A stretch of DNA of 64,000 nucleotides from Clostridia bacterium. GTDB taxonomy: Bacteria; Bacillota; Clostridia; Monoglobales; Firm-18. Location: NCBI GenBank assembly GCA_017397315.1, contig JAFQJA010000017.1, forward strand, positions 1,804-65,803, in the 5' to 3' direction. The notes under the pieces are model-generated. The model was not told the DNA's origin and did no database searches. It saw only the letters and a program-made list of their open reading frames with translations. A program made the position numbers and the translations under genes. Shown piece by piece: positions 1-12,467 of this stretch (positions are counted from its first letter, which is position 1; the number at the start of each line of letters is the position of its first letter).

Positions 1-7
1 AAGCGGA

Positions 8-322
8 GTGATTTTCCCTGATACATACTACAAAATACAGAATAATATCGGCTTAAATCTGAAAAATCAGGCTGAAAAGCTGAAAATTATCTATTTTGTA
101 CGCCCTGCACTTAAAACAGTCGATACAAACGACAATATCAGCAGTGAAAATGTTATGCTGCCTGTTGAATTTATCGACTTAGCAAAAGCAAAACTAAGGG
201 GCGAGGCCTACAAGGTAGCAAACGAGGACAGTATTGCTGCAAAGTGGCTTAATGATTATAATGTTTTGCTTGAAACTTTTAAGGCGTGGATTTCAGGAAA
301 ACAATCTGAATTTGGAATGTGA
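8..322 (+). CDS. Hypothetical phage protein (start uncertain; the frame is open to the window edge)
   Basis: 104-aa ORF ending 9 nt before the next gene in the same operon. No motif recognised. Confidence 0.4.
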   Translation: MIFPDTYYKIQNNIGLNLKNQAEKLKIIYFVRPALKTVDTNDNISSENVMLPVEFIDLAKAKLRGEAYKVANEDSIAAKWLNDYNVLLETFKAWISGKQSEFGM

Positions 323-331
323 GGTGTTTGT

Positions 332-1984
332 ATGGCTAAAAAGACAGAAAACAAACTCTCTTACTTACAAATGCCGTTACCTGATAGCAGAAAGCATTAT
401 AAAATGACAAAGCGTGCTTGGAATGGTCTTAATTACAGACAAACAATAGATACAGGTGCTTTGTCAATGGAAAACAACATATCAACGCTTGAAGCTCCGT
501 ACCTTACACCATCGCAGAAGCCTATCGAATTTACAGGCAATTATACAAATCCTATCAGTATGTTTGGATTTGATGATTTCCTGATAGTGATATACAGAAA
601 AAGCACATCAATTTATGTGGATTATATCACTGTTGACGAGTACGGCGATGCAGACAATATCTATACAGGTGTTCTGCAAGACGGCGGTGCAACAAGCGAG
701 GACGAATATCCACGATGCGTTGTTCAATTCAATGTGTATGACACGCCGACAGACCCGGTAAGTGGTCAGTTTATTAAAAAATTACTTATTTTTCCTGATA
801 AAAAGTCTATGGATTTTGAAATCACGGAAGATGATTTCGCCATAAGTGCTATGAGCGTACTCGTTAAAACATACACGAACGACACCGAAGAAGATGACGG
901 CACATATCCCCCTCCTGCTTCTGCAAGTCATAACTATTACTACAAAAACCTCTACAATGACGAGGTATATAAATGGGTTGATGATGAAAGCGACAGCGAA
1001 AATTCAGGGTGGAAAATCAGCGTACCCCCGGCTATGCCGGATATTAAATACGCTGCGGTGCATTTATCAAGGCTTTTCGGTGTTGATGATGACAGAGTTT
1101 ACGCAAGCGGCTATAACGATTACTCTAATTGGAATTTAGATACCATTGACGAATACAACGAAAGTAATGCGTGGTGCAGTCCTGCACAGTCAAACACAAA
1201 GGCCGGCGGCGTATTTACAGGGATTATTACATACCAAAGCCACATTGTATGCTTCAAGCGTGATTTTATGCACGAAATATACAATACAAAAAATCCGTTC
1301 AGGCTTCAGGACATTTATGCGGAGGGTACTATCGACCACAGGACAATACAAGATGTTGACGGCAAGTTGATATTTGTATCTGAGGACGATGTAAAGGTAT
1401 ATACAGGCTCTAACCCTCGCATTATCGGATATAACCTGAATATGAAACAGTATGAAAAAGCTGTGTCGGGAACGGATAACAGAAATTATTACCTCTACTG
1501 CGAAGATGCAGACGGCAACAGTCGGCTTTTTACTTACGATACCTATGTGGGCGAATGGTCCGAGCAGAGTGTATCATACGAGGTTATGAGCTTTGCACAT
1601 AACAAGAATGGTATGTATATGCTTTTGTCAGACGGTACTATATACAAAATGGATTCTGACGACTACAAGCATAGTTGGAGTTTTGAAACAGACCTTATCA
1701 CAAATGAAACTGTTGATATTAAGCATATCAAGAAAATACAGATGTTTGCTGATATAGCATCAGGTGCGAATATAAAGGCTTATATACTGTATGACGATGA
1801 GGAATTTGACGAAAGCTCATCGCACCTTGTATTTGAAAGCTCCGGCAGCGGTCAAAAGGCTATCCGTGTAAAACCAAGACAGACCGCAGGTTATGGTATA
1901 AAGTTGCACATTGAGGGTTACGGCTATGTAAAACTCTATGAATTAGAGTTATTTATGGAGCAAGGCGGTGATTTGTATGCGTGA
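332..1984 (+). CDS. Phage structural protein in the tail/baseplate region, function unassigned
   Basis: 550-aa ORF with an SD-like 'gaggtg' upstream of the ATG. It overlaps the next gene. The call rests on its position upstream of the tail-fibre genes. No catalytic motif seen. Confidence 0.6.
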   Translation: MAKKTENKLSYLQMPLPDSRKHYKMTKRAWNGLNYRQTIDTGALSMENNISTLEAPYLTPSQKPIEFTGNYTNPISMFGFDDFLIVIYRKSTSIYVDYITVDEYGDADNIYTGVLQDGGATSEDEYPRCVVQFNVYDTPTDPVSGQFIKKLLIFPDKKSMDFEITEDDFAISAMSVLVKTYTNDTEEDDGTYPPPASASHNYYYKNLYNDEVYKWVDDESDSENSGWKISVPPAMPDIKYAAVHLSRLFGVDDDRVYASGYNDYSNWNLDTIDEYNESNAWCSPAQSNTKAGGVFTGIITYQSHIVCFKRDFMHEIYNTKNPFRLQDIYAEGTIDHRTIQDVDGKLIFVSEDDVKVYTGSNPRIIGYNLNMKQYEKAVSGTDNRNYYLYCEDADGNSRLFTYDTYVGEWSEQSVSYEVMSFAHNKNGMYMLLSDGTIYKMDSDDYKHSWSFETDLITNETVDIKHIKKIQMFADIASGANIKAYILYDDEEFDESSSHLVFESSGSGQKAIRVKPRQTAGYGIKLHIEGYGYVKLYELELFMEQGGDLYA

Positions 1985-3161
1985 AGAAAACATTGAAAAG
2001 ATGAATTTCAAGGAGCTTCGGGCAGAGGTTCAGTTGCTTCGTGATGAGCTTGCTATTTTTAAGCGTAAATACGAAGATGCGATATACAACCTTGACAGTG
2101 ATAATTTCGGTAAGAGCTTCACTGTTGAGCAAAACAATATGAAAGCTCAAATCAAGATTTCCGCAGAAGCTATTAAAACAATGGTATCAAAAACAGACCT
2201 TGCGACATCGTTAGAAAAATATTCTACCATAGCTCAAACGGCTGATGCGATACAGTCTGTTGTTTCAAAAGGTGCTAATCTTGACGAAGCAATTACAATA
2301 GGTTCTCTTGCAGAAGCAACGGACATTGAAAAGATTTATAAAATCGAAAATGTCAACACCGTAGTAGATGATTTAGGCAACGCAAGAGATGTTGTAATCG
2401 GCGAAACATACTACTACTACAACAATTTAACAAAGACTTGGGAAGTGTTGAGTGGTGAAAACATCTACACAATGTTTACGCAGACCGCAGAGGGCTTTGT
2501 TCTTAAAGGAAACACTATTATTGACGGAACTACAACAATAACAAGAAATCTTGTTTTAAGCGGTAATGTTACTTGGGATATGGAAAATTCCCCCGTGCAA
2601 ACGCAGTATTCTGCCGATAATGCCTCTTGGCACTCACCTATGGCAAGCGGCGATATGTATATGAGAATGAGCTTTGACGGCGGCAAAACTTGGAGTACAT
2701 CTACAAAGGTTGTAGGAACAGACGGCAAAAACGGTACTAACGGCTCAAATGCTTCTGTTACACCGCAAGCCGTATTTAATGCACTTACCGATAGCGGAGC
2801 GAATCAAGGCATATTTGCCGCCTTTGTTGAAAACGATGAACAGATATACATAAACGCTGAATTTGTGCAGGCAGGTATATTAAGCGGTATGACCTTGCAG
2901 AACACCGCAGGAACGCACAAACTGCAAATGTCGTCAAGCAGCGGTTCAGACTACGGAACATTCAGACTATACAACGCCAACTACGGTTCTGTTCCCTATT
3001 TCAGCATATACGACAGCACATTGGGTAAGGTTAACTTACTTGCAGCAGGTCTTACCTTTTTGGAAACTTCCGTATCAGGAAGCGTAATAACAGTAACGCC
3101 GCAAGGCACTTGGGATTTTTCAAGTGCAGATGTTGCCGGAATAACGGCGGTGTGGGCATAA
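1977..3161 (+). CDS. Tail fibre / minor structural protein (N-terminal coiled coil, C-terminal beta-rich domain)
   Basis: Heptad-like N-terminus (FKELRAEVQLLRDELAIFKRKYEDAIYNL). The segment 'YSADNASWHSPMASGDMYMRMSFDGGKTWSTSTKVVGTDGKNGTNG' is typical of Gram-positive phage fibre / host-specificity proteins. The start could be GTG 1968, ATG 1977 or ATG 2001. Confidence 0.6.
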   Translation: MREENIEKMNFKELRAEVQLLRDELAIFKRKYEDAIYNLDSDNFGKSFTVEQNNMKAQIKISAEAIKTMVSKTDLATSLEKYSTIAQTADAIQSVVSKGANLDEAITIGSLAEATDIEKIYKIENVNTVVDDLGNARDVVIGETYYYYNNLTKTWEVLSGENIYTMFTQTAEGFVLKGNTIIDGTTTITRNLVLSGNVTWDMENSPVQTQYSADNASWHSPMASGDMYMRMSFDGGKTWSTSTKVVGTDGKNGTNGSNASVTPQAVFNALTDSGANQGIFAAFVENDEQIYINAEFVQAGILSGMTLQNTAGTHKLQMSSSSGSDYGTFRLYNANYGSVPYFSIYDSTLGKVNLLAAGLTFLETSVSGSVITVTPQGTWDFSSADVAGITAVWA

Positions 3162-3173
3162 AGGAGTGAAACT

Positions 3174-4340
3174 ATGTTACCTATAACAGCAGCAATGCTT
3201 TCAGTAACACACAAGTGCAATCTTGCGTGTAAATATTGCTTTGTGAATCAGTGTCCCGAAGATATGACCTTTGACACTGCAAAAAAGGCGGCAGATTGGC
3301 TTGCTGCCAACGCAAACTACCCCGACAATATCCCCGAAATAAACTTTTTCGGTGGCGAACCTTTACTGAGGTGGGACGATGTTGTTAAACCTTTGATTTC
3401 ATATATCCGATGCACATACCGTTATCCATATAAGCTGTCAATGACTACAAACGGCGTTTTGCTTACTGAAGATAAGCTACGATACCTGAAGAAAATGGAT
3501 GTCGGTATTCTCATAAGCATTGACGGAAGCAAAGAAACGCAGGACTACAACAGACCATTTCACAACGGAAACGGCAGCTTTGATGTGATAGAACCGAATA
3601 TACTCACAGCGATTGAGCTTTATCCGGCACTTGTTTTTCGTATGACACTTATTCCCGATACCTGCCATAACTTTATGAGCAATGTAATGTATGCACAGTC
3701 TATCGGGTACAATCGTGTATTTGCAATGCCTAATGTCTTTGAAGAATGGACGGAAGAAAAAAGAGAGGTTATGCGAAAGCAGTTGCGTATTTACTCCGAA
3801 TACTACATTGCATCGTATAAAAAGGGCGTTATACCGATAGATTTCAACCCTCTTGAAAACGCATTTAAGGACATTCTTTTGATAAATCAGGCAATAGACA
3901 GCGAACAGTACAGGACAAATGCAAGGTGTAAAGCGTGTAATCAATGCGGAATAGGTGCAACAAAATTTGCGGCTATTGACCCTCTCGGCGATATATACAG
4001 TTGTCAGGAGCTTACAAGCACGATGAACAGAGATAGTATTTTCTATATCGGAAATCTGACGGACGGCATTTATGAGGAACGCAGAGAAGCATTGACCTCT
4101 TTGTATAATGCTATCGCTGTATCGGGTGCAAACTGTGCAGAGTGTAAGTACGATGTAATCTGCGATGGCGGCTGTGCCGCTAACAACTACCTTGTAAACG
4201 GCGATATAAATAAAATTCCCGAGGTTTTCTGTTGGTGGCGGCAGATATTGCTTGATGAAGCTATTTATGTTGCAACTGTTTTGGGCGAAGCCGAGTGTTT
4301 CCGTTTCAAAAAGCATTGGGAGGTAATATGTAATGGATAG
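3174..4340 (+). CDS. Radical SAM / SPASM-domain maturase (anSME / peptide-maturase-like)
   Basis: SD 'aaaggagtg' precedes the ATG. CNLACKYC forms the CX3CX2C triad (nt 3216-3239). FFGGEPLL is present. The C-terminal SPASM pattern is GDIYSC ... CAECKYDVICDGGC (nt 4134-4175). Confidence 0.9.
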   Translation: MLPITAAMLSVTHKCNLACKYCFVNQCPEDMTFDTAKKAADWLAANANYPDNIPEINFFGGEPLLRWDDVVKPLISYIRCTYRYPYKLSMTTNGVLLTEDKLRYLKKMDVGILISIDGSKETQDYNRPFHNGNGSFDVIEPNILTAIELYPALVFRMTLIPDTCHNFMSNVMYAQSIGYNRVFAMPNVFEEWTEEKREVMRKQLRIYSEYYIASYKKGVIPIDFNPLENAFKDILLINQAIDSEQYRTNARCKACNQCGIGATKFAAIDPLGDIYSCQELTSTMNRDSIFYIGNLTDGIYEERREALTSLYNAIAVSGANCAECKYDVICDGGCAANNYLVNGDINKIPEVFCWWRQILLDEAIYVATVLGEAECFRFKKHWEVICNG

Positions 4341-4917
4341 AATAGAACTTCCCGAATTTCTTGGGTACGATTTAGATACCGGAATACAGCTTTTTGCATC
4401 TTGTACTTGCCAATCCAACACTTGTGAATGGGAATATCAAGGATGCGATGCCTGTTTATATAACTGTCAGACGAGTTGCGAAACAGGGTGTCAGTCGTGC
4501 TATACCTCGCAAGGTTGCAGCAGTGCTTGTCAGCGTGGAATATGTCAAACATCTTGTCAGTCGGTATGTCAGGACGGTTGTCAAAGTGCTTGTATGTACG
4601 GCGAAAACTGTTCAAGCAACTGTTTATATTACAGTCAGGCAGGAGATAGCTTTGCTTGGACTACTCCTATTGAGCAGGGAGAACCTATGCTGCTATACAG
4701 CGGTATGTCAGCTCCCGTAACTGCGACAGAGTGGAATATGCTTGTGGGGTATGTAAACCGATTATGCAGTAAAAGCATTTCATCTGTCATAAGAGGTTAT
4801 CCTGTAACGGAAGAACAGGTTACAGAGGTTGCTAACGCCCTCGGCGTATCTGTTCCGAAGAAGATAACCGCAGCGTTTTTTATAGCGTTGGAAGCTGCTG
4901 TCAACGCTTTATTATAA
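4333..4917 (+). CDS. Cysteine-ladder protein (18 Cys in residues 24-97), candidate substrate or partner of the adjacent rSAM enzyme
   Basis: The ATG overlaps the rSAM stop by 8 nt. Repeated CQ[ST]xC / CxxxC units fill nt 4402-4623. A ~95-aa Cys-poor C-terminal domain follows. Confidence 0.75.
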   Translation: MDRIELPEFLGYDLDTGIQLFASCTCQSNTCEWEYQGCDACLYNCQTSCETGCQSCYTSQGCSSACQRGICQTSCQSVCQDGCQSACMYGENCSSNCLYYSQAGDSFAWTTPIEQGEPMLLYSGMSAPVTATEWNMLVGYVNRLCSKSISSVIRGYPVTEEQVTEVANALGVSVPKKITAAFFIALEAAVNALL

Positions 4918-4951
4918 AAAAAATAATCAAATACAAGGAGCTGATTTCTTA

Positions 4952-5254
4952 ATGAAAGTAAAATTCAACGCAAAAGAGCCACGGACTTTTCAGTGTGATG
5001 AACCGCTTGAACTGAAAACATTTTCAGACGGCAAGGCTGCCGGGTGGCTTCTCACATTTCACATTGTTGCTGAAAGTCTGACGGCCAGTGAGCTTGACAC
5101 ACTGCTCACACCTGAAACAACTTCCGTTATAGTGTTTACAACGGAAAAAGGCAAGGAAAAGACTGTTACCGGGTACACCTCGGTACGAAGCTGTTCCGTC
5201 AAGCACGGCGAGAACAATAATATAGCAGAGATACAACTGTCGAAAGGAGTGTAA
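4952..5254 (+). CDS. Hypothetical phage protein
   Basis: 100-aa ORF with SD 'aaggag' 8 nt upstream, inside the same operon. No motif recognised. Confidence 0.55.
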   Translation: MKVKFNAKEPRTFQCDEPLELKTFSDGKAAGWLLTFHIVAESLTASELDTLLTPETTSVIVFTTEKGKEKTVTGYTSVRSCSVKHGENNNIAEIQLSKGV

Positions 5255-5260
5255 TCGGTA

Positions 5261-5566
5261 ATGGATAAGTTTGAAAGAGTAACAAACGGCTTTAATTTCG
5301 TGTACGAAAAGGAGCTTGCGGCAAATGAAACTGTTATTGTGGATATGCCGTCTGTTTCCCCTAACAAAAGGGGCGTAAATGACATCGGGTGGCAGACTGA
5401 CGGTGATATTACGCTTTATGGAACACTGTCAAAAGACCCCGAAAGCGATACGGCTCTTTGGCAGGAAATCAAAGAGAGTGATGAGATAAACAAAACTGTT
5501 TCCGCTATTAAGATTGTAAATAGCGGTGCTGCTTGCAAAGTTGCAATCAGAGTAATTATGTGTTAG
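5261..5566 (+). CDS. Hypothetical phage protein
   Basis: 101-aa ORF starting 6 nt after the previous stop. No motif recognised. It does not look like a helical Avd. Confidence 0.55.
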   Translation: MDKFERVTNGFNFVYEKELAANETVIVDMPSVSPNKRGVNDIGWQTDGDITLYGTLSKDPESDTALWQEIKESDEINKTVSAIKIVNSGAACKVAIRVIMC

Positions 5567-5579
5567 GCGGTGATTCAGA

Positions 5580-6788
5580 ATGAAAGGTAATGTTTCAAAA
5601 GCAAAGGGCGGCGGTGGCGGCGGTGGTGTTACTGTCGCTGACGGAAAAGTATATGCTATGGATGGTTCAAGAAAAATTGAATTAGTACAGGCATATCAGA
5701 CCTACGGCGTTTCGATTGACCTGTCAAACAGCAATCCTGAAACTGCGGTTACATATACCGATGATGCAGTCGGTATGGTTGCAGGTTCGCCCGATTGGTA
5801 CAAAATGAGTATTTTCAACAAAATCAAGCCTTGTCTGTTTAAGAATGGTGCTGTTGTAGGTTATCTCAACCCTGACAACTTTGCACAGTTTGCAGACGGC
5901 ACGGCAGCGGATATTACTTCCGGGAACAGTGGCGATGTAATGATTGAAATTCCGAAAACAGGATATAAAATCTCAAAAAGCGGCACTACCCTTACTGTGC
6001 AGATTACGGACGACCCGAACAAAAAAGGCTTTTCGTACAAAGCACACACAAGAACAGAGGACGGCGACAGAGAAAAACTGTATATCGGTGCTTTCTTGGG
6101 TAGCAACAAAGATAACAAGCTCCGTTCTGTTTCAGGTGTTTTACCCCTTAATGTAACCACACTAACTGATTTTAGAACCTATGCAAAGGCAAATGGTGCA
6201 GGTTACGACCTCTTTGCGTTCTATCCTATGACACTTTTGCAGTGCTTGTACCTGATTATGTATAAAAACCTCGATTCACAGACAGCACTCGGACAGGGTT
6301 ATGTCGGTGATATGGATTGGGCGTACGGTGCGAAAAACACAGGTGCAACCATTGACAAAGGTATGAGCTACGGCACATCAGACCAAATGGAACAGATGAA
6401 ATTCCTCGGTATTGAGGACTTTTGGGGCAATCTGTATCAGTGGATTGACGGTCTTGTTTCAACAAGTGATTATCACGCTTTGGTGGCAACAGACAATTTC
6501 AATGATACAGGTGAAAATTACACCGATTTAGGTGCGTTATCTACAAAATACATCGGTGGATATATGAAAGAACCGCAGGGAAACAACGATGCAGGTTTTA
6601 TTATCGGCACAGGTGGTGGTTCATCTTCTACCTACTTCTCGGATTGTGCGGATTTCTGTGGCGGCTGTGTGCCTGTCTTTGGCGGCTGTTTCGATGACGG
6701 TGCGATTGCGGGTGCTTTTCGGCTGTATGTCGATTGTATTCCCGACTCTGCCGGTGACGTTGTCGGCGGCCGCTTGATGTTCTTGTAG
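5580..6788 (+). CDS. DGR target protein: tail fibre / receptor-binding protein with a C-terminal variable region (C-type-lectin/FGE-like fold expected)
   Basis: The 402-aa ORF carries the VR repeat in its last ~45 codons. 'GIEDFWGNLYQWIDG' resembles the GNVWEW-type motif of FGE/CLec-fold DGR targets. The VR codons correspond to AAT/TAT/GAC-type TR codons. Confidence 0.85.
   Translation: MKGNVSKAKGGGGGGGVTVADGKVYAMDGSRKIELVQAYQTYGVSIDLSNSNPETAVTYTDDAVGMVAGSPDWYKMSIFNKIKPCLFKNGAVVGYLNPDNFAQFADGTAADITSGNSGDVMIEIPKTGYKISKSGTTLTVQITDDPNKKGFSYKAHTRTEDGDREKLYIGAFLGSNKDNKLRSVSGVLPLNVTTLTDFRTYAKANGAGYDLFAFYPMTLLQCLYLIMYKNLDSQTALGQGYVGDMDWAYGAKNTGATIDKGMSYGTSDQMEQMKFLGIEDFWGNLYQWIDGLVSTSDYHALVATDNFNDTGENYTDLGALSTKYIGGYMKEPQGNNDAGFIIGTGGGSSSTYFSDCADFCGGCVPVFGGCFDDGAIAGAFRLYVDCIPDSAGDVVGGRLMFL
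6641..6774 (+). repeat. DGR variable region (VR), at the 3' end of the target gene
   Basis: 134-nt alignment to 6893-7026. There are 24 mismatches, each opposite a TR adenine, and no other mismatch. Homology decays after the shared GGCGGCC (IMH-like end). Confidence 0.92.
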
Positions 6789-6892
6789 GTCGCTACAACG
6801 ACATAAATACTCACAGGCAATTACAGAACGGTTGATACTACGATTCAGTATTATAAAAGAATTAAGAACCTTTTGGCTTCTTGGCTCTTTTG

Positions 6893-7026
6893 GGATTATG
6901 CGAATTTCTATGACGGCTATGTGCCTGTCTTTGGCGGCTATTTCAATGACAGTGCGAATGCAGGTGCTTTTCAACTGAATGTCAATTATAATCCCGACAA
7001 TACCGATGACAATATCGGCGGCCACT
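6893..7026 (+). repeat. DGR template region (TR)
   Basis: Non-coding copy of the VR. It has 34 adenines (hand count), and 24 of them are substituted in the VR. It is rich in AAT/TAT codon equivalents and lies 130 nt upstream of the RT gene. Confidence 0.92.
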
Positions 7027-7155
7027 CAATGTTTTATTTTGGAATATAACTGTAATTGCCTTGCCTCTTGGCAAAACATAAAAAGGTTCACACCGTGTTA
7101 GTAGCTTAACTGTCGAAAGCTCGGTAAAACAAACATCAAAAAGTAGGTGTAGTTA

Positions 7156-8214
7156 GTGAAAAGATACGGAAATTTATACGATAAAATCTGCGATATGGAT
7201 AATCTTCGTCTTGCACATAAGAACGCAAGAAAAGATAAATCCCACTATAAGGCGGTACAAATGGTTGACAGCAACCCTGATTATTACCTTTCTCAAATTC
7301 GGGAAATGCTGTTAAATAAAACCTATAATGTCAGTCCCTATACATATCGCAAAATTATGGATAAGGGCAAAGAAAGAGAGCTTGCAAAGCTCCCATACTT
7401 CCCTGACAGAATAATACAATGGGCGATTCTTTTACAGATAGAGCCTATATTCAGAAAAGTATTTACAAACTTTACCTGTGCATCGCTTAAAAAGCGTGGC
7501 ATACACAAAGCATCGAGATTAACAGACAAATATATGGAAGATAGACCGGGAACGGCTTATTGCCTGAAAATTGATGTCAACAAATTCTATCCTAACATCA
7601 ATCACGAGATATTAAAAACGATGCTGCGGAAAAAGTTTAAGGACAATGATTTACTTGAATTATTAGACAAAATCATTGACAGTATGCCCGGTGAAAAGGG
7701 TGTTCCGATTGGCTCTTACCTCTCTCAATACCTTGCAAATTTCTACTTGGCATATTTCGACCATTGGTTGAAAGAAATTAAGCGTGTAAAGTATATTGTC
7801 CGATATATGGACGATATAACGATTTATAATGAATCTAAAGAGTTTTTGCACGCCCTGCTCCGTGATATGGAAGAATACCTGCAAAACAACTTGAAATTGT
7901 CTGTAAAAGATAATTGGCAGGTGTTTCCGACAGACATCAGGGGCGTTGACTTTGTAGGTTATAGACATTTCTACGGATATAAGCTCCTGCGGAAATCCAC
8001 CTGCAAAAACTTTAAGCGAAAAATGCTTAACATAAAGAAGAAAATCCAAAAAGGTCTTAACATCTCATACAGTGAGTGGTGTTCAGCCAATTCATATAAA
8101 GGTTGGTTGACTTGGTGTGACGGCTTCAGGCTAATGCAAAAGTACATCGCACCACTCCAACCAACACTTGAAAAGTATTATCAAGAAAATATAAAGCGAA
8201 AGGCGGCGGTTTAA
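7156..8214 (+). CDS. DGR reverse transcriptase
   Basis: GTG start preceded by 'aggtg'. The RT finger/palm motifs include the DGR-typical 'IGSYLSQ' (nt 7708-7728) and the catalytic 'YMDD' (nt 7804-7815). Confidence 0.9.
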   Translation: MKRYGNLYDKICDMDNLRLAHKNARKDKSHYKAVQMVDSNPDYYLSQIREMLLNKTYNVSPYTYRKIMDKGKERELAKLPYFPDRIIQWAILLQIEPIFRKVFTNFTCASLKKRGIHKASRLTDKYMEDRPGTAYCLKIDVNKFYPNINHEILKTMLRKKFKDNDLLELLDKIIDSMPGEKGVPIGSYLSQYLANFYLAYFDHWLKEIKRVKYIVRYMDDITIYNESKEFLHALLRDMEEYLQNNLKLSVKDNWQVFPTDIRGVDFVGYRHFYGYKLLRKSTCKNFKRKMLNIKKKIQKGLNISYSEWCSANSYKGWLTWCDGFRLMQKYIAPLQPTLEKYYQENIKRKAAV

Positions 8215-8484
8215 GTGAAACTTATAGGAACAGTTCAGGGCAACTCTGAACAGGCAAAGGCTTTGGTTATCGGGAAAGATACAGTATATGTGCATACAGA
8301 TATTGTCCCGGTTGAAAAAGACGGCAAAATTGTTGAGGACTTATTCAGCTATACAGAGGTTCAGTACGGCAAGGACGAATACATTGAGCTTATGGCAAAG
8401 CAGAATGAGCAGTTAGGTAACGACCTGACAGACACACAGCTTGCATTGTGTGAAATCTACGAAACAATCGGGGGTGCTGAATAA
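8215..8484 (+). CDS. Small acidic phage protein (weakly XkdW-like C-terminus)
   Basis: 89-aa ORF with a GTG start abutting the RT stop. The C-terminal 'LGNDLTDTQLALCEIYE' resembles small proteins found between tail fibre and lysis genes in PBSX-like phages. Confidence 0.5.
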   Translation: MKLIGTVQGNSEQAKALVIGKDTVYVHTDIVPVEKDGKIVEDLFSYTEVQYGKDEYIELMAKQNEQLGNDLTDTQLALCEIYETIGGAE

Positions 8485-8603
8485 TGGCTAAAGTTTATGC
8501 AAATTTAATTAAAAAAGGACTAAAAACCATTGACGATGTTCCGGCGGCTTTGAGAAAAGCGGTACAGGCGTTGTTAGATGCAGACAAAGGGGAATCAGCA
8601 TAA
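8484..8603 (+). CDS. Small phage protein (39 aa, MAKVYANLIKKGLKTIDDVPAALRKAVQALLDADKGESA)
   Basis: Not in the ORF track because it is under 60 aa. TAATG overlaps at both ends indicate translational coupling. SD-like 'gggggtg' lies upstream. It resembles the short proteins that precede holin genes in Firmicute phages. Confidence 0.5.
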   Translation: MAKVYANLIKKGLKTIDDVPAALRKAVQALLDADKGESA

Positions 8604-8887
8604 TGAGTAATATTTCTTGGCTTGCTACCTTTATCGGTGAAATAGCAGTATTACTCGGTGTAATCATTCCTGTCATTGCGTGGATTCGTAAGCTATCTGA
8701 CGGAATGAGGTGTCAGCTTCGTAGCGAAATGCTGCGTATCTACTACCACAACCGAGAAAGGCAGATAATCAGGCAGTACGAAAAAGAAAACTTTGTATTT
8801 CTCTATAATGCATATAAAGCTCTCAAAGGTAATTCATTTATAGATGATATTTACAAAGAGGTTAGGACTTGGGAAGTTATTTCGTAA
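8603..8887 (+). CDS. Phage membrane protein (single N-terminal TM), lysis-region associated
   Basis: Hydrophobic segment WLATFIGEIAVLLGVIIPVIAWI, followed by a charged domain. It sits immediately upstream of the endolysin. Confidence 0.55.
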   Translation: MSNISWLATFIGEIAVLLGVIIPVIAWIRKLSDGMRCQLRSEMLRIYYHNRERQIIRQYEKENFVFLYNAYKALKGNSFIDDIYKEVRTWEVIS

Positions 8888-8900
8888 AGGAGTTGAGATT

Positions 8901-9623
8901 ATGAACAATATTGAATTTGTAAACAAGGCTAAAAACATTGCAGAAAATTATAAAACTGCTTATGTATGGGGTGCTTTCGGTTTTACTGCGACTGCTGCAA
9001 ATATGCAGCGTTTAATCGACCAATACTCCAAAAACAACCAATATCTTGCAAAGGCAAGGCAGATTTACGGCAACGGCTTTTTCTTTGACTGCGTAGGTCT
9101 GATTAAAAGTATTCTGTGGGGTTTTTGCGGAAACAAAAACTCTACATACGGCGGTGCTAAATACACTGCAAACGGCGTACCCGACATATCAGCAGACCAA
9201 ATGATTAAATGCTGTAAAGAGGTTTCAACCGATTTCAAAAACATTGAAGTCGGTGAGGTTGTTTGGCTTTCCGGGCATATCGGTATTTATATCGGCGGTG
9301 GTAAAGTTGTTGAAGCAACACCTGCTTGGTCGGGCGGCGTTCAGATTTCCGACATAAGCACAAGCGGTAAAAGAACTAAAAACGGCGTTGGAACTGCTGT
9401 TTGGAAGAAGCACGGCAAACTGCCTTACATCACTTATGAAAAGGCAACAGCGAAGAAACTTGAATCTGGTAATGACATTGTATGGGAGCTTATGAACGGC
9501 AAACATAAAATTGAAATTACTGAGGTTCAGAGAGCTGTCAATGCTTTGGATAAAGCAAAAAACAACCCTGAGTTTATGTCGCTCTATTGGATTCTGTATA
9601 AGTTGGTGAATGGCAATGGCTAA
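8901..9623 (+). CDS. Endolysin, NlpC/P60-like cysteine peptidase
   Basis: SD 'aaaggag' precedes ATG 8901. The catalytic-type Cys is in 'FFFDCVGLIKS' and the His in 'SGHIGIYIGGGKVVEA'. The gene is adjacent to the holins. The ORF-track start at 8844 overlaps the previous gene and is less likely. Confidence 0.75.
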   Translation: MNNIEFVNKAKNIAENYKTAYVWGAFGFTATAANMQRLIDQYSKNNQYLAKARQIYGNGFFFDCVGLIKSILWGFCGNKNSTYGGAKYTANGVPDISADQMIKCCKEVSTDFKNIEVGEVVWLSGHIGIYIGGGKVVEATPAWSGGVQISDISTSGKRTKNGVGTAVWKKHGKLPYITYEKATAKKLESGNDIVWELMNGKHKIEITEVQRAVNALDKAKNNPEFMSLYWILYKLVNGNG

Positions 9624-9840
9624 AAAGAAAAAATCAAGTGTTTTCAGTAAAGTTATTGTTTCGGTGGTAATCGCTCTGAATGTTCTGTTTACTGTTGCTG
9701 TGCTGATAATTTTCTGTAAAACATCGTGCGAACCGACAGGCTTAATTGCTGCGTGGTTCTCGTTCACAACGGTTGAGCTTTGGAGTTTAGCCGGAATTAA
9801 GAAAGCAAAAGAGAAAAAGGAGAACAGCTATGATTGTTAA
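9610..9840 (+). CDS. Holin-like membrane protein (2 TM)
   Basis: 76 aa with a Lys-rich N-terminus, two hydrophobic helices and a charged C-terminus. It overlaps the endolysin stop. Confidence 0.6.
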   Translation: MAMAKKKKSSVFSKVIVSVVIALNVLFTVAVLIIFCKTSCEPTGLIAAWFSFTTVELWSLAGIKKAKEKKENSYDC

Positions 9841-10117
9841 TGTTATTTTAGGTGCTATTGTACCTCTTATTTTACTCATTGTGGCCGGCTACTTAATTAA
9901 AACTTTCCGCAATAACGAAGTTATTAAGTGGGTTGGTATCGCTGTAAAAGCTGCCGAGCAGATTTTTGAGCACGGTATGAATACAGAAAAGTTTACCTAT
10001 GTAAGCGAATGGATCTCAAAGAAATTTAAGATTTCAGAAGCAGATCTTAAAAACCTTATTGAATGTGCTGTATATGAGATTAAAACCCCTGCTAAAAATA
10101 CCGAACAGAAAGAGTGA
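9830..10117 (+). CDS. Holin (LL-H / superfamily-6-like)
   Basis: 95 aa. An N-terminal TM (VILGAIVPLILLIVAGYLI) is followed by an amphipathic 'KWVGIAVKAAEQIF...' domain, as in LL-H family holins. Confidence 0.6.
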   Translation: MIVNVILGAIVPLILLIVAGYLIKTFRNNEVIKWVGIAVKAAEQIFEHGMNTEKFTYVSEWISKKFKISEADLKNLIECAVYEIKTPAKNTEQKE

Positions 10118-10123
10118 TAGCCA

Positions 10124-10822
10124 ATGAGCACCATTAAAAAAATAGGCGGTATTCTCGATTTAAGGGAAGATTGGGAAAAGAAAACTCCGGTGCTTCGTAA
10201 AAAAACTGCTGAACTTTCCGGACAGACAAGCACCGAGTATAACCCGTTTACCGATAAAAACGGAAATCTGCTTAATAAATTTATAGACTACCAGGGCGCA
10301 CTTGATAACCCTAATGTGTCTAATGCTGCTAAAAACTTTATACAGAAAGCAACCGGCTTAACACCTACAAAAACTGCGGTAAGCGGTTCACAAGCAATTA
10401 ACCCTGCTGTGGCGAACATTCAAACAGTTACCCCCTCTGCTACCGGTAACACTATTGCTGATAGTGCAGCCAAGTACATAGGCACTCCGTATGTGTGGGG
10501 TGGCGAGAGTATGCAAGAGGGCGGTATGGATTGTAGCGGTTTTGTGTATAACGCTTTGCGTGATGCCGGTTATAAAGTCGGCAGAACCACAGCACAAGGT
10601 TATAGAAGCTATGGCACAAAGGTCAGCAAGGCAGATATGCAGCCCGGCGATTTAGTCTTTTTTGGTAGTGGCGATGCAAGCCATATCGGCATATACATCG
10701 GTAACGGGCAAATGATACATTCATCCGGAGGAAGTAAAAACACAGCTTCTAATCCCGGTAAGGGCGTATCAATTACCAATGTTGACTACCGAAAAGACTT
10801 CCTTGAAGCAAGACGATATTAA
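10124..10822 (+). CDS. NlpC/P60 (C40) peptidoglycan peptidase, second copy, post-lysis cargo block
   Basis: 'YIGTPYVWGGESMQEGGMDCSGFVYNAL ... GDLVFFGSGDASHIGIYIGNGQMIHSSG' contains the canonical Cys/His NlpC/P60 motifs. Confidence 0.85.
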   Translation: MSTIKKIGGILDLREDWEKKTPVLRKKTAELSGQTSTEYNPFTDKNGNLLNKFIDYQGALDNPNVSNAAKNFIQKATGLTPTKTAVSGSQAINPAVANIQTVTPSATGNTIADSAAKYIGTPYVWGGESMQEGGMDCSGFVYNALRDAGYKVGRTTAQGYRSYGTKVSKADMQPGDLVFFGSGDASHIGIYIGNGQMIHSSGGSKNTASNPGKGVSITNVDYRKDFLEARRY

Positions 10823-10844
10823 GTAAAAGGAGTGAAAATACATT

Positions 10845-12467
10845 ATGGCGTACAATCCTTATAATGCGGTCAACGCAATTTATAAGTTAAAAGGTCAATG
10901 GGATAGTGCAAACAACGCCGGCGATGATGCAAAGAAAAACAAGGCTGCCACAGATGCACAGAAGTATTACGCCGAACTTCGCCGTAACGGATATGGATCT
11001 GTTGCAGACGAGCTATCCGCAAACGATTACGCCGGGGCAAAACGCATAAATGATTATTATGCAAAGACCGGCAGAACAGCAACAAGACCTTATTTATATT
11101 CTCTCGGTCAATCAATGGGCTTATCACAGCAAGCAGTTGATGATTTAATATCCTGGGATGATACAACCGGCGAAGTGTCTTTCGGCGGTAAAAAGATTGG
11201 TACTCCGGATGCTGTTGCAGATGGCGTTTCATATTGGAACGATCCTACTGTTTTAGATAGTGCCTTTACTGATTATGTCAGCAGAAGCGGTTTAACTCGC
11301 ACAAAAGAAAAAGCTGTCGATCAAGAAAATGAGGCACTATTCAAAAAATACACGCAAGAATATGAGGACTTAAAGGAAACAAACCCCTTTACTACCGAGG
11401 AAGCAAAATCTATTCTTGCTAAATATGATTTGGCAGGCTTGCAGGCCAGGGACAATGAAGCTGCAAGCGGTGGTGCTGATAATAGCGGAAACATTGACAG
11501 CTTCGCTGCTGCCAACGCTTTAAGACAGCAAACAGCCCTTGTAAACCAGGGACAGCAAGTGGTGCTGCAACAGTATCAGCAGAAACTCGACCACGCAAGA
11601 AACTTATTGTCTGATATGGGCGTAAACATTGACAGAGTTTATAACCAGGATGAAAACTCTAAAAATAACCAGGTGTCAAGAGATGTTGCTACAAGCGAAG
11701 TTACCGGAAAAGTACCGAGCAGTATGCTTTATTCCGGAAACCCGTTTTTCAATGCTGATGGCACTTTGAAAGACGAGAACATAGATTACAAGGCTGAAAT
11801 TGAAAAAGCAGTTGCAGCTGGTAATACAGAGCTTGCAAATCAGTTAAGAGTAGCAAGAGGATATAAAATATTCTCTAACTACGGAAAATACGGTCAGTAT
11901 GCAGACGGCGATTACTCCGTACCTGGAGCACAAAAGACCGAAACTGCAAGACAGTTTGACGAGCAGATTGCACAAGCAGACAGAACTCTCAATGCAGAGG
12001 AAAGAATGAATACTGCTAATAACGCAAATGCCATTGAACAGATTAAGACCGGTGCTGAATACGGCACAACAAAGCCGACTTTGACAGCAGCCCAAGCAGC
12101 ACAAGCTATCAAAAACGGCGAAACTTCCCAGGCTGTACTTGATGCCTATAATTATTACTACGGTACTAATTACACAGTAGATAATTTACCCAAAACAGCC
12201 GGAGGCCCTATGAGTGATGAAGATGTTAAATGGTGGGTTGATGATCTTAACAAGCAAGTTGAGGAAAAATATCCTGGAAAGACAGCCATTAACAAAACCG
12301 GTGCGAACTCTTACAAAAAGGGCGATATTGATGCAGATTGGATCATTATTAAGGTGTTTGAGTCTGACTCACTTACCCAGGAACAAAAGGAGTATTTGCT
12401 GTATGACAAATTCGGTATTACCGAGGATCAAGTTAATACGGCTATGAAAGATCCCCATTACAGATAA
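10845..12467 (+). CDS. Hypothetical protein (540 aa), co-operonic with the polyvalent protein
   Basis: Strong SD 'aaaaggagtg'. The ORF is long with typical codon usage. No motif recognised. Confidence 0.6.
   Translation: MAYNPYNAVNAIYKLKGQWDSANNAGDDAKKNKAATDAQKYYAELRRNGYGSVADELSANDYAGAKRINDYYAKTGRTATRPYLYSLGQSMGLSQQAVDDLISWDDTTGEVSFGGKKIGTPDAVADGVSYWNDPTVLDSAFTDYVSRSGLTRTKEKAVDQENEALFKKYTQEYEDLKETNPFTTEEAKSILAKYDLAGLQARDNEAASGGADNSGNIDSFAAANALRQQTALVNQGQQVVLQQYQQKLDHARNLLSDMGVNIDRVYNQDENSKNNQVSRDVATSEVTGKVPSSMLYSGNPFFNADGTLKDENIDYKAEIEKAVAAGNTELANQLRVARGYKIFSNYGKYGQYADGDYSVPGAQKTETARQFDEQIAQADRTLNAEERMNTANNANAIEQIKTGAEYGTTKPTLTAAQAAQAIKNGETSQAVLDAYNYYYGTNYTVDNLPKTAGGPMSDEDVKWWVDDLNKQVEEKYPGKTAINKTGANSYKKGDIDADWIIIKVFESDSLTQEQKEYLLYDKFGITEDQVNTAMKDPHYR

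Follow-up and report, generated by a model that had tools for sequence, protein, structure and literature searches.

A cysteine ladder in a phage tail-module protein as a probable substrate of the overlapping radical-SAM/SPASM enzyme

The window analysed here, 64,000 nt of contig JAFQJA010000017.1 from a Clostridia bacterium, carries in the tail module of a large gut phage a gene for a radical-SAM/SPASM enzyme and, overlapping its 3' end, a gene for a protein with a ladder of 18 cysteines. The reading that we prefer, with a probability of roughly 0.6, is that the ladder serves in cis as the substrate region of this co-translated enzyme directly upstream and matures into a thioether rod of the tail module. 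Phages of anaerobes would then probably staple a virion-associated protein covalently, by analogy with the stapling of small peptide natural products by bacteria. Covalent stapling appeared probable because a conserved C-(Q/E)-x-x repeat was always found beside a radical-SAM enzyme of the thioether-forming kind, in about 60 loci.

The cysteine ladder and the position of Gln/Glu

The ladder protein gene (4333..4917, forward strand) encodes 194 aa followed by a stop codon in the translation of the window ORF, and in its cluster the protein is identical to MBQ3114868.1, a 'hypothetical protein' of a Clostridia bacterium MAG. A Shine-Dalgarno-like GGGAGG (4318..4323, forward strand) is located 9 nt 5' of the ATG at 4333. 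This ATG and the stop codon of the radical-SAM gene both lie within ATGGATAG, corresponding to a gene overlap of 8 nt by the ORF coordinates. The overlap and the good ribosome-binding site suggested that the two genes are translationally coupled.

The ladder is composed of C-(Q/E)-x-x units and extends from C24 to C97, including a terminal pseudo-unit CLYYSQ that ends at Q102 (4402..4638, forward strand); a short example stretch of the repeat is CQTSCQSVCQDGCQSACM. The first-pass annotation, made from the sequence alone, had located 18 Cys at residues 24, 26, 31, 38, 41, 45, 49, 53, 56, 62, 66, 71, 75, 79, 83, 87, 93 and 97, in agreement with the translation, and the span of 4402-4623 that it gave corresponds exactly to the first-to-last ladder Cys codons. 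One additional Cys, C145 inside the C-terminal domain, was absent from that list. The successive gaps between ladder Cys are 2, 5, 7, 3, 4, 4, 4, 3, 6, 4, 5, 4, 4, 4, 4, 6 and 4. The recount reproduced the nine CxxxC spacings noted earlier among the 17 gaps, far more than expected when the residues of the ladder were shuffled 100,000 times with its composition preserved (nine or more gaps of 4, p = 2e-5). The eight Cys said to be followed by Gln were also found, at 26, 45, 53, 66, 71, 75, 79 and 83, and again exceeded the expectation from 100,000 such shuffles (p = 1.3e-4 for at least eight CQ); the protein contains ten C[QE] dipeptides. The 74-aa ladder was indeed devoid of His and poor in hydrophobic and aromatic residues, which are one W, one L, one I, one V, one M and four Y only.

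The tgtcag-type periodicity previously remarked in the DNA was seen at the codon level but not as a DNA tandem repeat, as Tandem Repeats Finder detected in the ladder DNA only one 12-nt stretch of 2.5 copies, at 4554-4583. The repeat thus appeared to be kept at the protein level rather than to reflect recent slippage, and a DNA tandem repeat or slippage was ruled out as the origin of the ladder. Wrong-frame ORFs arise from the ladder DNA and overlap the true reading frame. Comparison with a 92%-identical copy in another locus (L002) gave a dN/dS of 0.036 for the whole gene and 0.029 over the ladder, where synonymous sites were saturated and 18 of 18 Cys were retained.

A word-indexed homologue search with the single ladder protein returned one 99% identical copy only. 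Nothing was found by tblastn of the protein against 50,697 phage records or by megablast of window positions 1-12000, a PDB sequence search with the protein gave chance-level matches only, and there was no match for it in Pfam, NCBIfam or PHROGs. The family was reached only by exhaustive phmmer and by walking out from the radical-SAM enzyme, the longest ORF being chosen as the adjacent ORF in related loci. The ladder relatives are 194 to 1319 aa long, with fusions to FN3, BW3TFN and other domains, and natural ladders contain from about 4 to more than 100 Cys. The sizes and multi-domain fusions bear out the earlier description of a full-size protein as opposed to a short RiPP precursor.

The repeat was analysed statistically in 144 non-redundant ladder proteins, in which 3032 of the 4857 Cys gaps of 12 or less were exactly 4. 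The residue following Cys in CxxxC was Q in 47% and E in 40% of cases (87% together). The alignment of homologues proposed in the first-pass annotation thus revealed conservation of both the Cys spacing and the Gln/Glu position, and the possibility raised there of a low-complexity accident failed. For the last Cys of a run, Q/E was present in 63% at +5 and in at most 18% at +2 to +4 and +6 to +10, the observations not being independent as the sequences are related and internally repetitive. The first Cys of a run had Q/E at -3 in just 19%. Where the Cys gap was at least 7, Q/E at +5 amounted to 55%; for a gap of 6, the values were 37% at +5 and 26% at +4, and just 20% directly after the next Cys. 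As for the potential acceptors Q/S/T/G/D/E/A listed previously, Q/E was position-constrained (+1 of the next unit, equal to +5 from Cys), whereas the others were not. In the window protein, Q/E stands at exactly +5 for just 9 of 18 Cys (12 of 18 at +4 to +6), so that part of the Cys would have to use different acceptors or remain unlinked. As the window ladder terminates in CLYYSQ, C97 would pair with Q102.

In the preferred reading, the enzyme would take a side-chain hydrogen from Gln or Glu inside the anaerobic host, and the resulting carbon would be joined to the thiol group of the Cys that stands five positions before the acceptor (with a tolerance of 4-6), as ranthipeptide-type maturases do. 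Because the acceptor Q/E stands directly after the next donor Cys, successive rings, which in this register would have six residues each, would overlap by two residues, and the product would be a continuous polycyclic, redox-insensitive rod. This rod would take the place of the FN3/Ig repeat arrays found in ladder-less paralogues, acting as a spacer or shaft of a tail-module protein, with the conserved C-terminal domain common to the rod and FN3/Ig versions. The fully specified form of the proposal is that an enzyme without an RRE domain, encoded by phages of strictly anaerobic Firmicutes, turns the C-(Q/E)-x-x repeat into overlapping Cys(i)-Gln/Glu(i+5) macrocycles, with Gln as a native acceptor, and so produces a welded, redox-proof rod replacing Ig/FN3 arrays. 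We advance this form tentatively, rating it as possible and somewhat short of an even chance.

The radical-SAM/SPASM enzyme and its pairing with the ladder

The candidate ladder maturase (3174..4340, forward strand) is a 388-aa radical-SAM/SPASM enzyme matching Pfam Radical_SAM at 9.5e-18. It possesses CxxxCxxC at residues 15-22 and the full SPASM Cys set (C258, C277, C321, C324, C330, C334 and C353), and the Cys of both sets were invariant in the enzyme alignment. The best NCBIfam matches were PapB (2.6e-56), the SCIFF maturase (4e-50) and QhpD (TIGR03906, 2e-38), with scores far below the curated cut-offs of 340, 425 and 453 bits at 191, 171 and 132 bits, respectively. TIGR04115 was matched at 121.5 bits (E = 5.5e-35; cut-off 350 bits), weaker matches were obtained for anSME (5.6e-22), cyclophane-forming enzymes and dynobactin DynA, and NxxcB was not among the top 25 NCBIfam matches. 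The nearest solved structure was CteB (5WGG, 1.6e-34), with residues 5-364 of the query aligned on 97-446 of CteB. As the phage enzyme begins at the radical-SAM core and aligns to CteB only from residue 97, it lacks an N-terminal RRE domain. QhpD makes Cys-Asp and Cys-Glu links, and PapB accepts Glu (PMC11002830).

Since the enzyme did not reach the curated cut-off of any named maturase family, its chemistry could differ from thioether formation at a side-chain carbon. The ladder might instead be subjected to sactionine formation (S to C-alpha), anSME-type conversion of Cys to formylglycine or C-C cross-linking, as the weaker matches to anSME, cyclophane enzymes and DynA would allow. An NxxC-like register, with the acceptor Q/E at i and Cys at i+3, is also conceivable, as the ring formed by NxxcB is N-x-x-C and Gln is accepted there in the acceptor position (PMC9389541) and as both registers are formally possible in regular C-Q-x-x-C units. 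However, the top-scoring relatives of the enzyme are all non-alpha thioether formers, and formylglycine-type chemistry would leave the strong Q/E constraint unexplained. The upstream register also disagrees with the enrichment of Q/E at +5 after the terminal Cys, which is not seen at -3 before the initial Cys, and with the behaviour of the gaps of 6. We consider a different chemistry on the ladder unlikely.

In every sampled locus in which the radical-SAM protein scored at least 356 bits to the family HMM, a Cys-ladder ORF was directly adjacent, either overlapping or within about 150 nt. After removal of redundancy these loci number about 60, on phage contigs and in prophages of Oscillospiraceae, Clostridium, Peptoniphilus, Ezakiella and others. 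Among the prophages that encode a ladder are culturable ones in Lawsonibacter faecis NSJ-52 (L093), Peptoniphilus duerdenii ATCC BAA-1640 (L111) and Clostridium tepidiprofundi DSM 19306 (L102). Radical-SAM proteins below about 330 bits mostly had no ladder neighbour. A radical-SAM gene was also found beside ladder proteins of other architectures, including one case with inverted gene order, and more than 1,300 homologues of the enzyme were detected at E<=1e-10 in an exhaustive search of an index of clusters at 90% identity. In contrast, no radical-SAM gene was present near the ladder-less FN3/Ig-repeat paralogues sharing the C-terminal domain in the two loci examined (L170 and Bacillus phage Thrax2). 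The strict co-occurrence and the absence of the enzyme at these two paralogues indicated that the overlapping enzyme very probably has the ladder as its substrate, and strengthened the initial proposal of a protein-scale substrate. Full-text literature searches found no description of this radical-SAM/ladder pair.

The same pairing bears on the possibility that the ladder is a metal- or Fe-S-binding rod, or one zipped by disulfides, without enzymatic modification, the radical-SAM enzyme having another substrate or a chaperone-like role. The presence of 18 Cys in 74 residues could permit metal binding, and the helices drawn by AlphaFold at low confidence would set the i/i+4 Cys on one face. Two reports also describe networks of disulfides in phage tails (PMC10811340, PMC13576161). 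Nevertheless, an unmodified rod would not account for the obligate adjacency and overlap of the enzyme gene across architectures and in both gene orders, nor for its being missing beside the two ladder-less paralogues. Metal binding is further disfavored by the lack of His and by the fact that the constrained position takes Gln and Glu alike, Gln being a poor ligand for metals, and disulfides would be unreliable in hosts that are strict anaerobes of reducing habitats. We regard an unmodified rod as improbable.

Tail-module context and the two ends of the ladder protein

The gene order in the window is a 550-aa ORF, the radical-SAM gene, the ladder gene, a DGR-diversified tail protein (phrog_5302), NlpC/P60 and holin, which places the ladder gene in a tail/baseplate block just 5' of the lysis cassette. 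The 550-aa ORF matched PHROG 511 'internal virion protein' of the head and packaging category. The five neighbouring ORFs at 332-6785 had no NCBIfam match at E<=0.1, and Pfam showed no PqqD-like domain in the neighbours. In relatives, the radical-SAM/ladder pair follows Dit (Sipho_tail) and Tal (Prophage_tail), and in another relative the ladder is fused to a baseplate-wedge BW3TFN domain; some ladder proteins are located outside clear tail modules and have peptidase-C39-like ends beside a BhlA-type holin. Judging from the gene position, the ladder protein would be a virion component. The identified hosts of ladder loci were all strict anaerobes, which fits with an O2-sensitive enzyme and with disulfides being useless there.

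The conserved C-terminal domain (approximately residues 104-194; 4642..4914, forward strand) consists of two short strands and three helices, and gave an AlphaFold2 pLDDT of 78.6 when modelled alone. Exhaustive phmmer yielded 43 matches, mostly over residues 103-194, and the domain was common to FN3/Ig-repeat tail-module proteins without a ladder. It occurs in UUV46197.1 of Bacillus phage vB_BanS-Thrax2, a 'fibronectin-like protein' in which a stretch of about 105 aa is about 42% identical to relative P0165. The structure prediction called for in the first-pass annotation, carried out with AlphaFold2 for the full-length protein, left residues 1-103 at a pLDDT below 50 and yielded no confident structure of the ladder; the helices drawn at such pLDDT are not trustworthy and are not taken here as support for a helical or coiled-coil ladder. 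Foldseek with the whole protein and with the C-terminal domain against PDB and BFVD gave no match at E<=0.001.

At the other end, the N-terminal motif RIELPEFL (residues 3-10; 4339..4362, forward strand) corresponds to the consensus (D/E)ELIxIPxFL in the alignment of relatives, where it is at times present in 2-4 copies; the first-pass annotation had not noticed it. Of the 41 ladder members 27 have the motif, compared with 4 of the 30 members without a ladder (Fisher p = 1e-5), and it was seen in 0 of 120 proteins of a control set. The four non-ladder members bearing it are themselves Cys-rich, and the motif is therefore confined to Cys-rich members. ELIxIPxFL might serve for docking to the RRE-less enzyme or else to the virion. 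It was rejected as a universal enzyme-recognition element, as it is missing from several subtypes of ladder whose enzymes belong to the same family. The earlier view that the protein shows no leader/core split or GG-type site holds in that nothing points to cleavage, but 'no leader' was too strong a statement given the conserved N-terminal element.

This leader-like motif, together with an enzyme akin to RiPP maturases, raises the question of whether the protein is a giant RiPP-like precursor, in which the N-terminal motif would be the leader and the C-terminal domain the carrier, and from which a modified ladder would be excised and set free upon lysis to act as a bacteriocin or a signal. The ladder proteins outside clear tail modules, with their peptidase-C39-like ends by a BhlA-type holin, are also compatible with such a role. 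The surroundings of the window gene are tail, DGR and lysis genes, in which no protease, transporter or immunity gene was found, and neither a GG-type nor another conserved cleavage site was seen at the ladder borders. Moreover, ladders occur in frame with the structural modules FN3 and BW3TFN, and the C-terminal domain recurs in tail-module proteins of the FN3 type from cultured phages of Bacillus. A released product is accordingly quite improbable. Finally, a low-complexity or spurious ORF without specific function, to which the biased composition and the alternative-frame ORFs overlapping the region might point, was effectively refuted by the dN/dS of 0.03 with saturated synonymous sites, the spacing and Q/E kept in 144 relatives, the good ribosome-binding site, the coupling to the upstream gene and the lack of a DNA tandem repeat.

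Relation to known systems and significance

The closest known class for the ladder system comprises the CXXX-repeat radical-SAM targets and the ranthipeptides. The CXXX-repeat systems (TIGR04115/TIGR04117, PF27846 'tSAM_targ_Cxxx_rpt') resemble the window in having a Cys-every-fourth repeat beside a SPASM radical-SAM enzyme. These families were reportedly defined bioinformatically by Haft and Basu in 2011 as short bacterial peptides, and we know of no chemistry established for them. Faint precomputed PF27846 matches and one weak TIGR04117 match (16 bits versus a cut-off of 50) were seen in longer ladder relatives, while the window protein had no NCBIfam match at E<=0.1 and no match in a Pfam set without PF27846. 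Unlike CXXX-repeat targets, the repeat of the window is embedded in multi-domain phage tail-module proteins, and, unlike CXXX-repeat clusters, TIGR04116, which we take to be the accessory 'CXXX repeat peptide modification system protein', was not found among the five neighbouring ORFs (332-6785, E<=0.1).

The ranthipeptide systems PapB/freyrasin and CteB/thermocellin include the best-scoring relatives of the enzyme and have Cys-rich substrates with repeated donor-acceptor motifs. The link in CteA connects Cys to Thr at i+5, and Gln is, to our knowledge, not a native acceptor in ranthipeptides. Their substrates are shorter than about 50 aa and carry a leader, whereas the window substrate has 194 aa; the phage enzyme has no counterpart of the N-terminal RRE domain of CteB; their rings are separate, whereas those proposed for the ladder would overlap; and no association with structural genes of phages is known for them. 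Freyrasin contains six Cys-X3-Asp rings, and PapB also forms S-C(gamma) links to Glu (PMC11002830). A precedent for a protein-scale substrate is provided by QhpD/QhpC, in which the thioethers made by a SPASM enzyme reside in a lasting structural subunit (PMC11002830). QhpC, however, which is the gamma subunit of quinohemoprotein amine dehydrogenase, has 3-4 irregular links and no periodic ladder and is part of an enzyme in the periplasm of Gram-negative bacteria rather than of a phage, whereas the neighbours of the phage enzyme are tail, DGR and lysis genes. The streptococcal RaS-RiPP system NxxcB/NxxcA forms a radical beta-thioether within a four-residue N-x-x-C, which is formally matched by Q-x-x-C of the ladder (PMC9389541). 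The acceptor in NxxcA is upstream, whereas the statistics of terminal units and irregular gaps of the ladder favour a downstream one.

On the side of virion structure, the ladder proposal shares with HK97 and the tail of phage Milano the stabilization of a phage structural protein by covalent cross-links. The HK97 capsid is an isopeptide chainmail. The tail of phage Milano has disulfide networks (PMC10811340). Links of these two kinds arise autocatalytically or by oxidation and do not require an enzyme of their own, whereas the ladder would use a phage-encoded radical enzyme. The FN3/Ig-repeat protein of Thrax2 resembles the ladder protein in its C-terminal domain and in its gene position between tail fibre and lysis cassette, but it has FN3 repeats where the ladder would be, contains zero Cys and lacks a radical-SAM neighbour. 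As far as we know, radical-SAM thioether maturases have been found almost only with small-peptide natural products, QhpC being the single exception as a protein subunit, and covalent virion reinforcement only as autocatalytic isopeptides or disulfides. A phage, protein-scale setting of CXXX/ranthipeptide-like chemistry appears to be undescribed.

If the fully specified form of the proposal is true, RiPP chemistry would build a part of a virion, providing a new type of protein material. A widespread phage enzyme-substrate pair would, if the preferred reading holds, unite the fields of RiPP thioethers and virion reinforcement. The maturase would act without an RRE domain and by a very simple recognition rule, and an encodable four-residue repeat would give rise to a rigid rod that withstands proteases and redox changes and can be tuned in length. 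Phages of anaerobes would thereby answer the problem of having no disulfides with radical chemistry.

The ladder gene and its phage context

The cysteine ladder is encoded by a forward-strand ORF of 194 codons (4333-4917); ATGGATAG holds both its ATG and the stop codon with which the preceding gene ends, and a GGGAGG box is located 9 nt upstream. Translation agreed exactly with the first-pass annotation in the 18 Cys positions (gaps of 2, 5, 7, 3, 4, 4, 4, 3, 6, 4, 5, 4, 4, 4, 4, 6 and 4), the nine CxxxC spacings, the eight CQ dipeptides, the lack of His and the scarcity of hydrophobic residues, with 4402-4623 running from the codon of the first ladder Cys to that of the last. C145 was an additional Cys, and C[QE] occurred ten times in the protein. 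When the 74-residue ladder was shuffled 100,000 times, at least nine gaps of 4 and at least eight CQ appeared at frequencies of 2e-5 and 1.3e-4, respectively. Recent DNA slippage as the source of the periodicity was ruled out by Tandem Repeats Finder, as it detected nothing in the ladder DNA beyond a 2.5-copy stretch of 12 nt, indicating that the periodicity is maintained at the protein level. The comparison with a 92%-identical copy on a viral contig, where synonymous sites were saturated, gave dN/dS values of 0.029 for the ladder and 0.018 for the C-terminal part, and 18 of 18 ladder Cys were kept. The ladder is thus a real, constrained gene, and the original observation is confirmed. Long alternative-frame ORFs also arise from the ladder DNA on both strands (4265-4720; 4394-4720 and 4476-4649 on the plus strand, 4265-4615 and 3477-4421 on the minus strand) as well as in relatives, and bear no sign of being genes.

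The window is DNA of a large phage. A contig of 136,699 bp, assigned by binning to a Clostridia MAG, carries exactly these radical-SAM and ladder proteins, and other parts of the window encode a clamp loader and contain an ORF of 4,554 aa. The latter, a single ORF following the lysis genes (12483-26147, plus strand), matched only one unknown PHROG and phrog_6263, the second through residues 1539-1672, a short stretch that is DNA-methyltransferase-like; one possibility is a giant protein that is polyvalent or injected. The gene order around the ladder was a 550-aa ORF (PHROG 511, 'internal virion protein' of the head and packaging category), a 397-aa ORF, the radical-SAM enzyme, the ladder protein, two ORFs of about 100 aa, a DGR-diversified tail protein (phrog_5302), the DGR reverse transcriptase, and NlpC/P60 enzymes with a holin. 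In relatives the pair comes after Dit and Tal, and an FN3 paralogue in the phage Thrax2 is located between a 'tail fiber' and amidase/holin genes. These gene orders indicated that the family is a late tail-module protein. The identified hosts were all strict anaerobes (Oscillospiraceae, Lawsonibacter, Clostridium, Fervidicella, Peptoniphilus, Ezakiella and Fenollaria).

The diversity-generating retroelement (5580-8214), 660 nt downstream of the ladder gene, is complete. Its tail-protein ORF (5580-6788) carries the variable repeat at the 3' end (6635-6781), the template repeat (6887-7033) is 81% identical to it with 25 of the 28 mismatches at template adenines, and the reverse transcriptase (7156-8214) matched RVT_1 at 1.8e-22. 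In the lysis cassette (8844-10822), two NlpC/P60-type enzymes (8844-9623, a weak match, and 10124-10822, 3.6e-26) flank a Holin_LLH-type holin (9830-10117) and a small hydrophobic ORF (9610-9840).

The protein family and its radical-SAM partner

A word-indexed search with the ladder protein returned near-identical copies only; exhaustive phmmer against 1.84 billion representatives gave 43 matches, nearly all through residues ~103-194. These matches shared a conserved C-terminal domain of about 95 residues, preceded either by a Cys ladder of C-(Q/E)-x-x units or by an Ig/FN3-like repeat array without Cys. The domain model (pLDDT 78.6) showed two short strands and three helices, and a structural-neighbour search with it found none. 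The ladder members aligned as an N-terminal (D/E)ELIxIPxFL motif, present 2-4 times over in some, a ladder of variable length, a last unit of the form C-(E/Q)-x-x-(S/A/G)-Q, optional FN3 and the C-terminal domain. The profile search added ladders fused to FN3, a baseplate-wedge BW3TFN domain, and peptidase-C39-like or ricin-like ends; several fused proteins carried faint precomputed matches to Pfam PF27846 ('tSAM_targ_Cxxx_rpt') and one a weak match to TIGR04117 ('Cys-Xaa-Xaa-Xaa repeat radical SAM target protein').

A 658-aa protein (locus L173, 4743-7977; GCA_016294925.1, contig JAEAME010000090.1), to which P0195 and P0198 are similar, combines a ~270-residue ladder with a ricin-like central part and a C-terminus like peptidase C39. 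It is encoded downstream of a 408-aa radical-SAM enzyme and a BhlA-type holin, in surroundings unlike a tail module, and could be a lysin, or a protein of bacteriocin type, that bears a ladder. In the ~210-aa proteins of loci L049 (5190-5846) and L051 (5212-5832), Cys-rich ladders, mostly CxxC with Asn/Asp/Ser rather than Gln/Glu after Cys, flank on both sides a central domain resembling the C-terminal domain of the window's protein.

The upstream radical-SAM/SPASM enzyme (3174-4340; Pfam Radical_SAM, Fer4_12) gave best NCBIfam matches to PapB (E 2.6e-56), the SCIFF thioether maturase (4e-50), nif11-type (8.4e-46), QhpD (2e-38), CcpM (3.4e-36) and the CXXX-repeat-target family (5.5e-35), all scoring far under the curated cut-offs, so the enzyme was placed in the thioether (ranthipeptide/QhpD-like) neighbourhood and in no named family. 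The nearest solved structure was CteB (5WGG); as the alignment begins at CteB residue 97, the enzyme is without the N-terminal RRE domain. Across 28 members of the family, little or no variation was seen at the CxxxCxxC and SPASM cysteines. At E<=1e-10 the enzyme had more than 1,300 homologues; the best 120 listed were typically ~390 aa long and 45-53% identical. The named human-gut phage Phass-1 (OQ749652.1, 135,976 bp) encodes a 31% identical enzyme (68449-69498), annotated solely as hypothetical.

With a family alignment, 160 loci were collected, drawn both from viral contigs and from genomes in GTDB, and were scored with an HMM. At every locus with a score of at least 356 bits (~60 non-redundant loci), a Cys-ladder ORF of 194-1319 aa with 5-113 Cys was located directly downstream, from overlapping to ~150 nt away, while enzymes below ~330 bits were mostly without a ladder neighbour. 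Ladder proteins of other architectures, taken as starting points, showed the pairing too: the BW3TFN-ladder protein was immediately followed by a 519-aa radical-SAM enzyme, and a 408-aa one lay upstream of the ladder/C39-like protein. No such enzyme was present on the 5.8-kb contig of one ladder-less paralogue, nor within the 18 kb inspected around UUV46197.1 of the cultured Bacillus phage vB_BanS-Thrax2, a homologue of 593 aa with FN3 repeats and zero Cys. The enzyme therefore tracks the ladder and not the C-terminal domain. Comparative genomics gives good support to the ladder protein as a probable protein-scale substrate of the enzyme.

More distant phage radical-SAM/SPASM families (~170-190 bits) precede ~200-aa proteins whose last part is a short ladder, for example ...YCVITCQVACQSSCQLACQSCQYNTCHNQNCGGWS (L070, 5301-5933; L079, 5350-5949; L084, 5342-5941), and the pairing seems to reach past the family studied. 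A Bacteroidota version in a Massilibacteroides MAG (L115, 5143-5634) is a 163-aa protein adjoining an enzyme of 292 bits, with just a four-Cys mini-ladder (CQGMCETCQAICQFGGQ) and again Q at +5 at its end.

The N-terminal motif, scored as [ILVM]-P-x-[FYWSTL]-L inside the first 90 residues, was found in 27 of 41 ladder members with the C-terminal domain versus 4 of 30 'non-ladder' members (Fisher p = 1e-5), these four being irregular Cys-rich proteins, and in none of 120 controls. Docking of the RRE-less enzyme is one possible role, and attachment to the virion another. The motif is not universal, as it is absent from three ladder subtypes paired with this same family of enzymes, namely 'MPSxSISGFKNW...', 'MALKEDDIKDLG...' and one in which the ladder begins at Met1.

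Register of the conserved Gln/Glu

In 144 non-redundant ladder proteins, Cys gaps of up to 12 were most often 4 (3032/4857) or 3 (976/4857). Position +1 of CxxxC was Q (47%) or E (40%), whereas +2 and +3 were small or polar without constraint, leaving Q/E as the sole constrained non-Cys residue. Of the inter-Cys residues proposed at first pass as potential thioether acceptors, Q/E alone showed this constraint.

In regular units, Q/E could partner the Cys three downstream (NxxC-like) or the Cys five upstream, and run ends and irregular spacings were used to tell the two registers apart. Before the first Cys of a run, Q/E at -3 showed no enrichment (19% of 147 run starts). After the last Cys, Q/E stood at +5 in 63% of 143 run ends (Q 53%) and at +2 to +4 and +6 to +10 in at most 18%; they also stood at +5 after 55% of the ladder Cys with a gap of at least 7 (n=335). 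After gap-6 Cys, Q/E were placed at +5 (37%), at +4 (26%) or directly after the next Cys (20%). The window's ladder had Q/E at +5 for 9 of its 18 Cys and at +4 to +6 for 12, ending as C97-L-Y-Y-S-Q102. The conserved Q belongs to the ladder and not to the C-terminal domain, as the corresponding border of the Bacillus FN3 paralogue reads '...NARPANFSW'. These patterns come from related, repetitive sequences and not from independent observations; they are a strong hint, short of proof, that the distance from the upstream Cys (5, tolerance 4-6) sets the place of the acceptor-like Q/E.

Proposed cross-linking and relation to known systems

A thioether mechanism is suggested by the known reactions of the closest enzyme families: PapB forms Cys-X3-Asp rings, six in number, and can use Glu as well, CteB joins Cys to Thr (S-C gamma) (PMC11002830), and NxxcB forms a beta-thioether and tolerates Gln (PMC9389541). 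Judging from sequence, we consider it probable (about 0.6) that the adjacent enzyme modifies the ladder with thioether-type cross-links. More tentatively, the links may run from the sulfur of each Cys to a carbon in the side chain of the Gln/Glu at +5, a specific register that we regard as somewhat less than an even bet. The rings would then overlap by two residues, every acceptor coming right after the next donor Cys. AlphaFold gave pLDDT <50 for residues 1-103, which is consistent with a modification-dependent structure and proves nothing.

The phage pair is a variation on a known theme, in which a Cys-repeat target accompanies a radical-SAM/SPASM enzyme. By name, it comes nearest to the CXXX-repeat radical-SAM target (TIGR04115/04117, PF27846), a concept defined by bioinformatics; among characterised systems, the ranthipeptides and QhpC/QhpD are the closest. 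Both the enzyme and the window protein fell short of every one of these membership thresholds. Unlike these systems, the phage pair has an RRE-less enzyme, protein-scale, multi-domain substrates, ladders with a strict Q/E rule and a tail context. A literature search, with many subscription papers outside its coverage, found no paper on the pair.

The cross-linked ladder would be a continuous polycyclic rod, taking the place of the FN3/Ig arrays as the spacer on the common C-terminal domain. Such a rod would suit the reducing habitats of the hosts, where disulfides are unreliable, and an oxygen-sensitive radical enzyme would suit their anaerobic cytoplasm.
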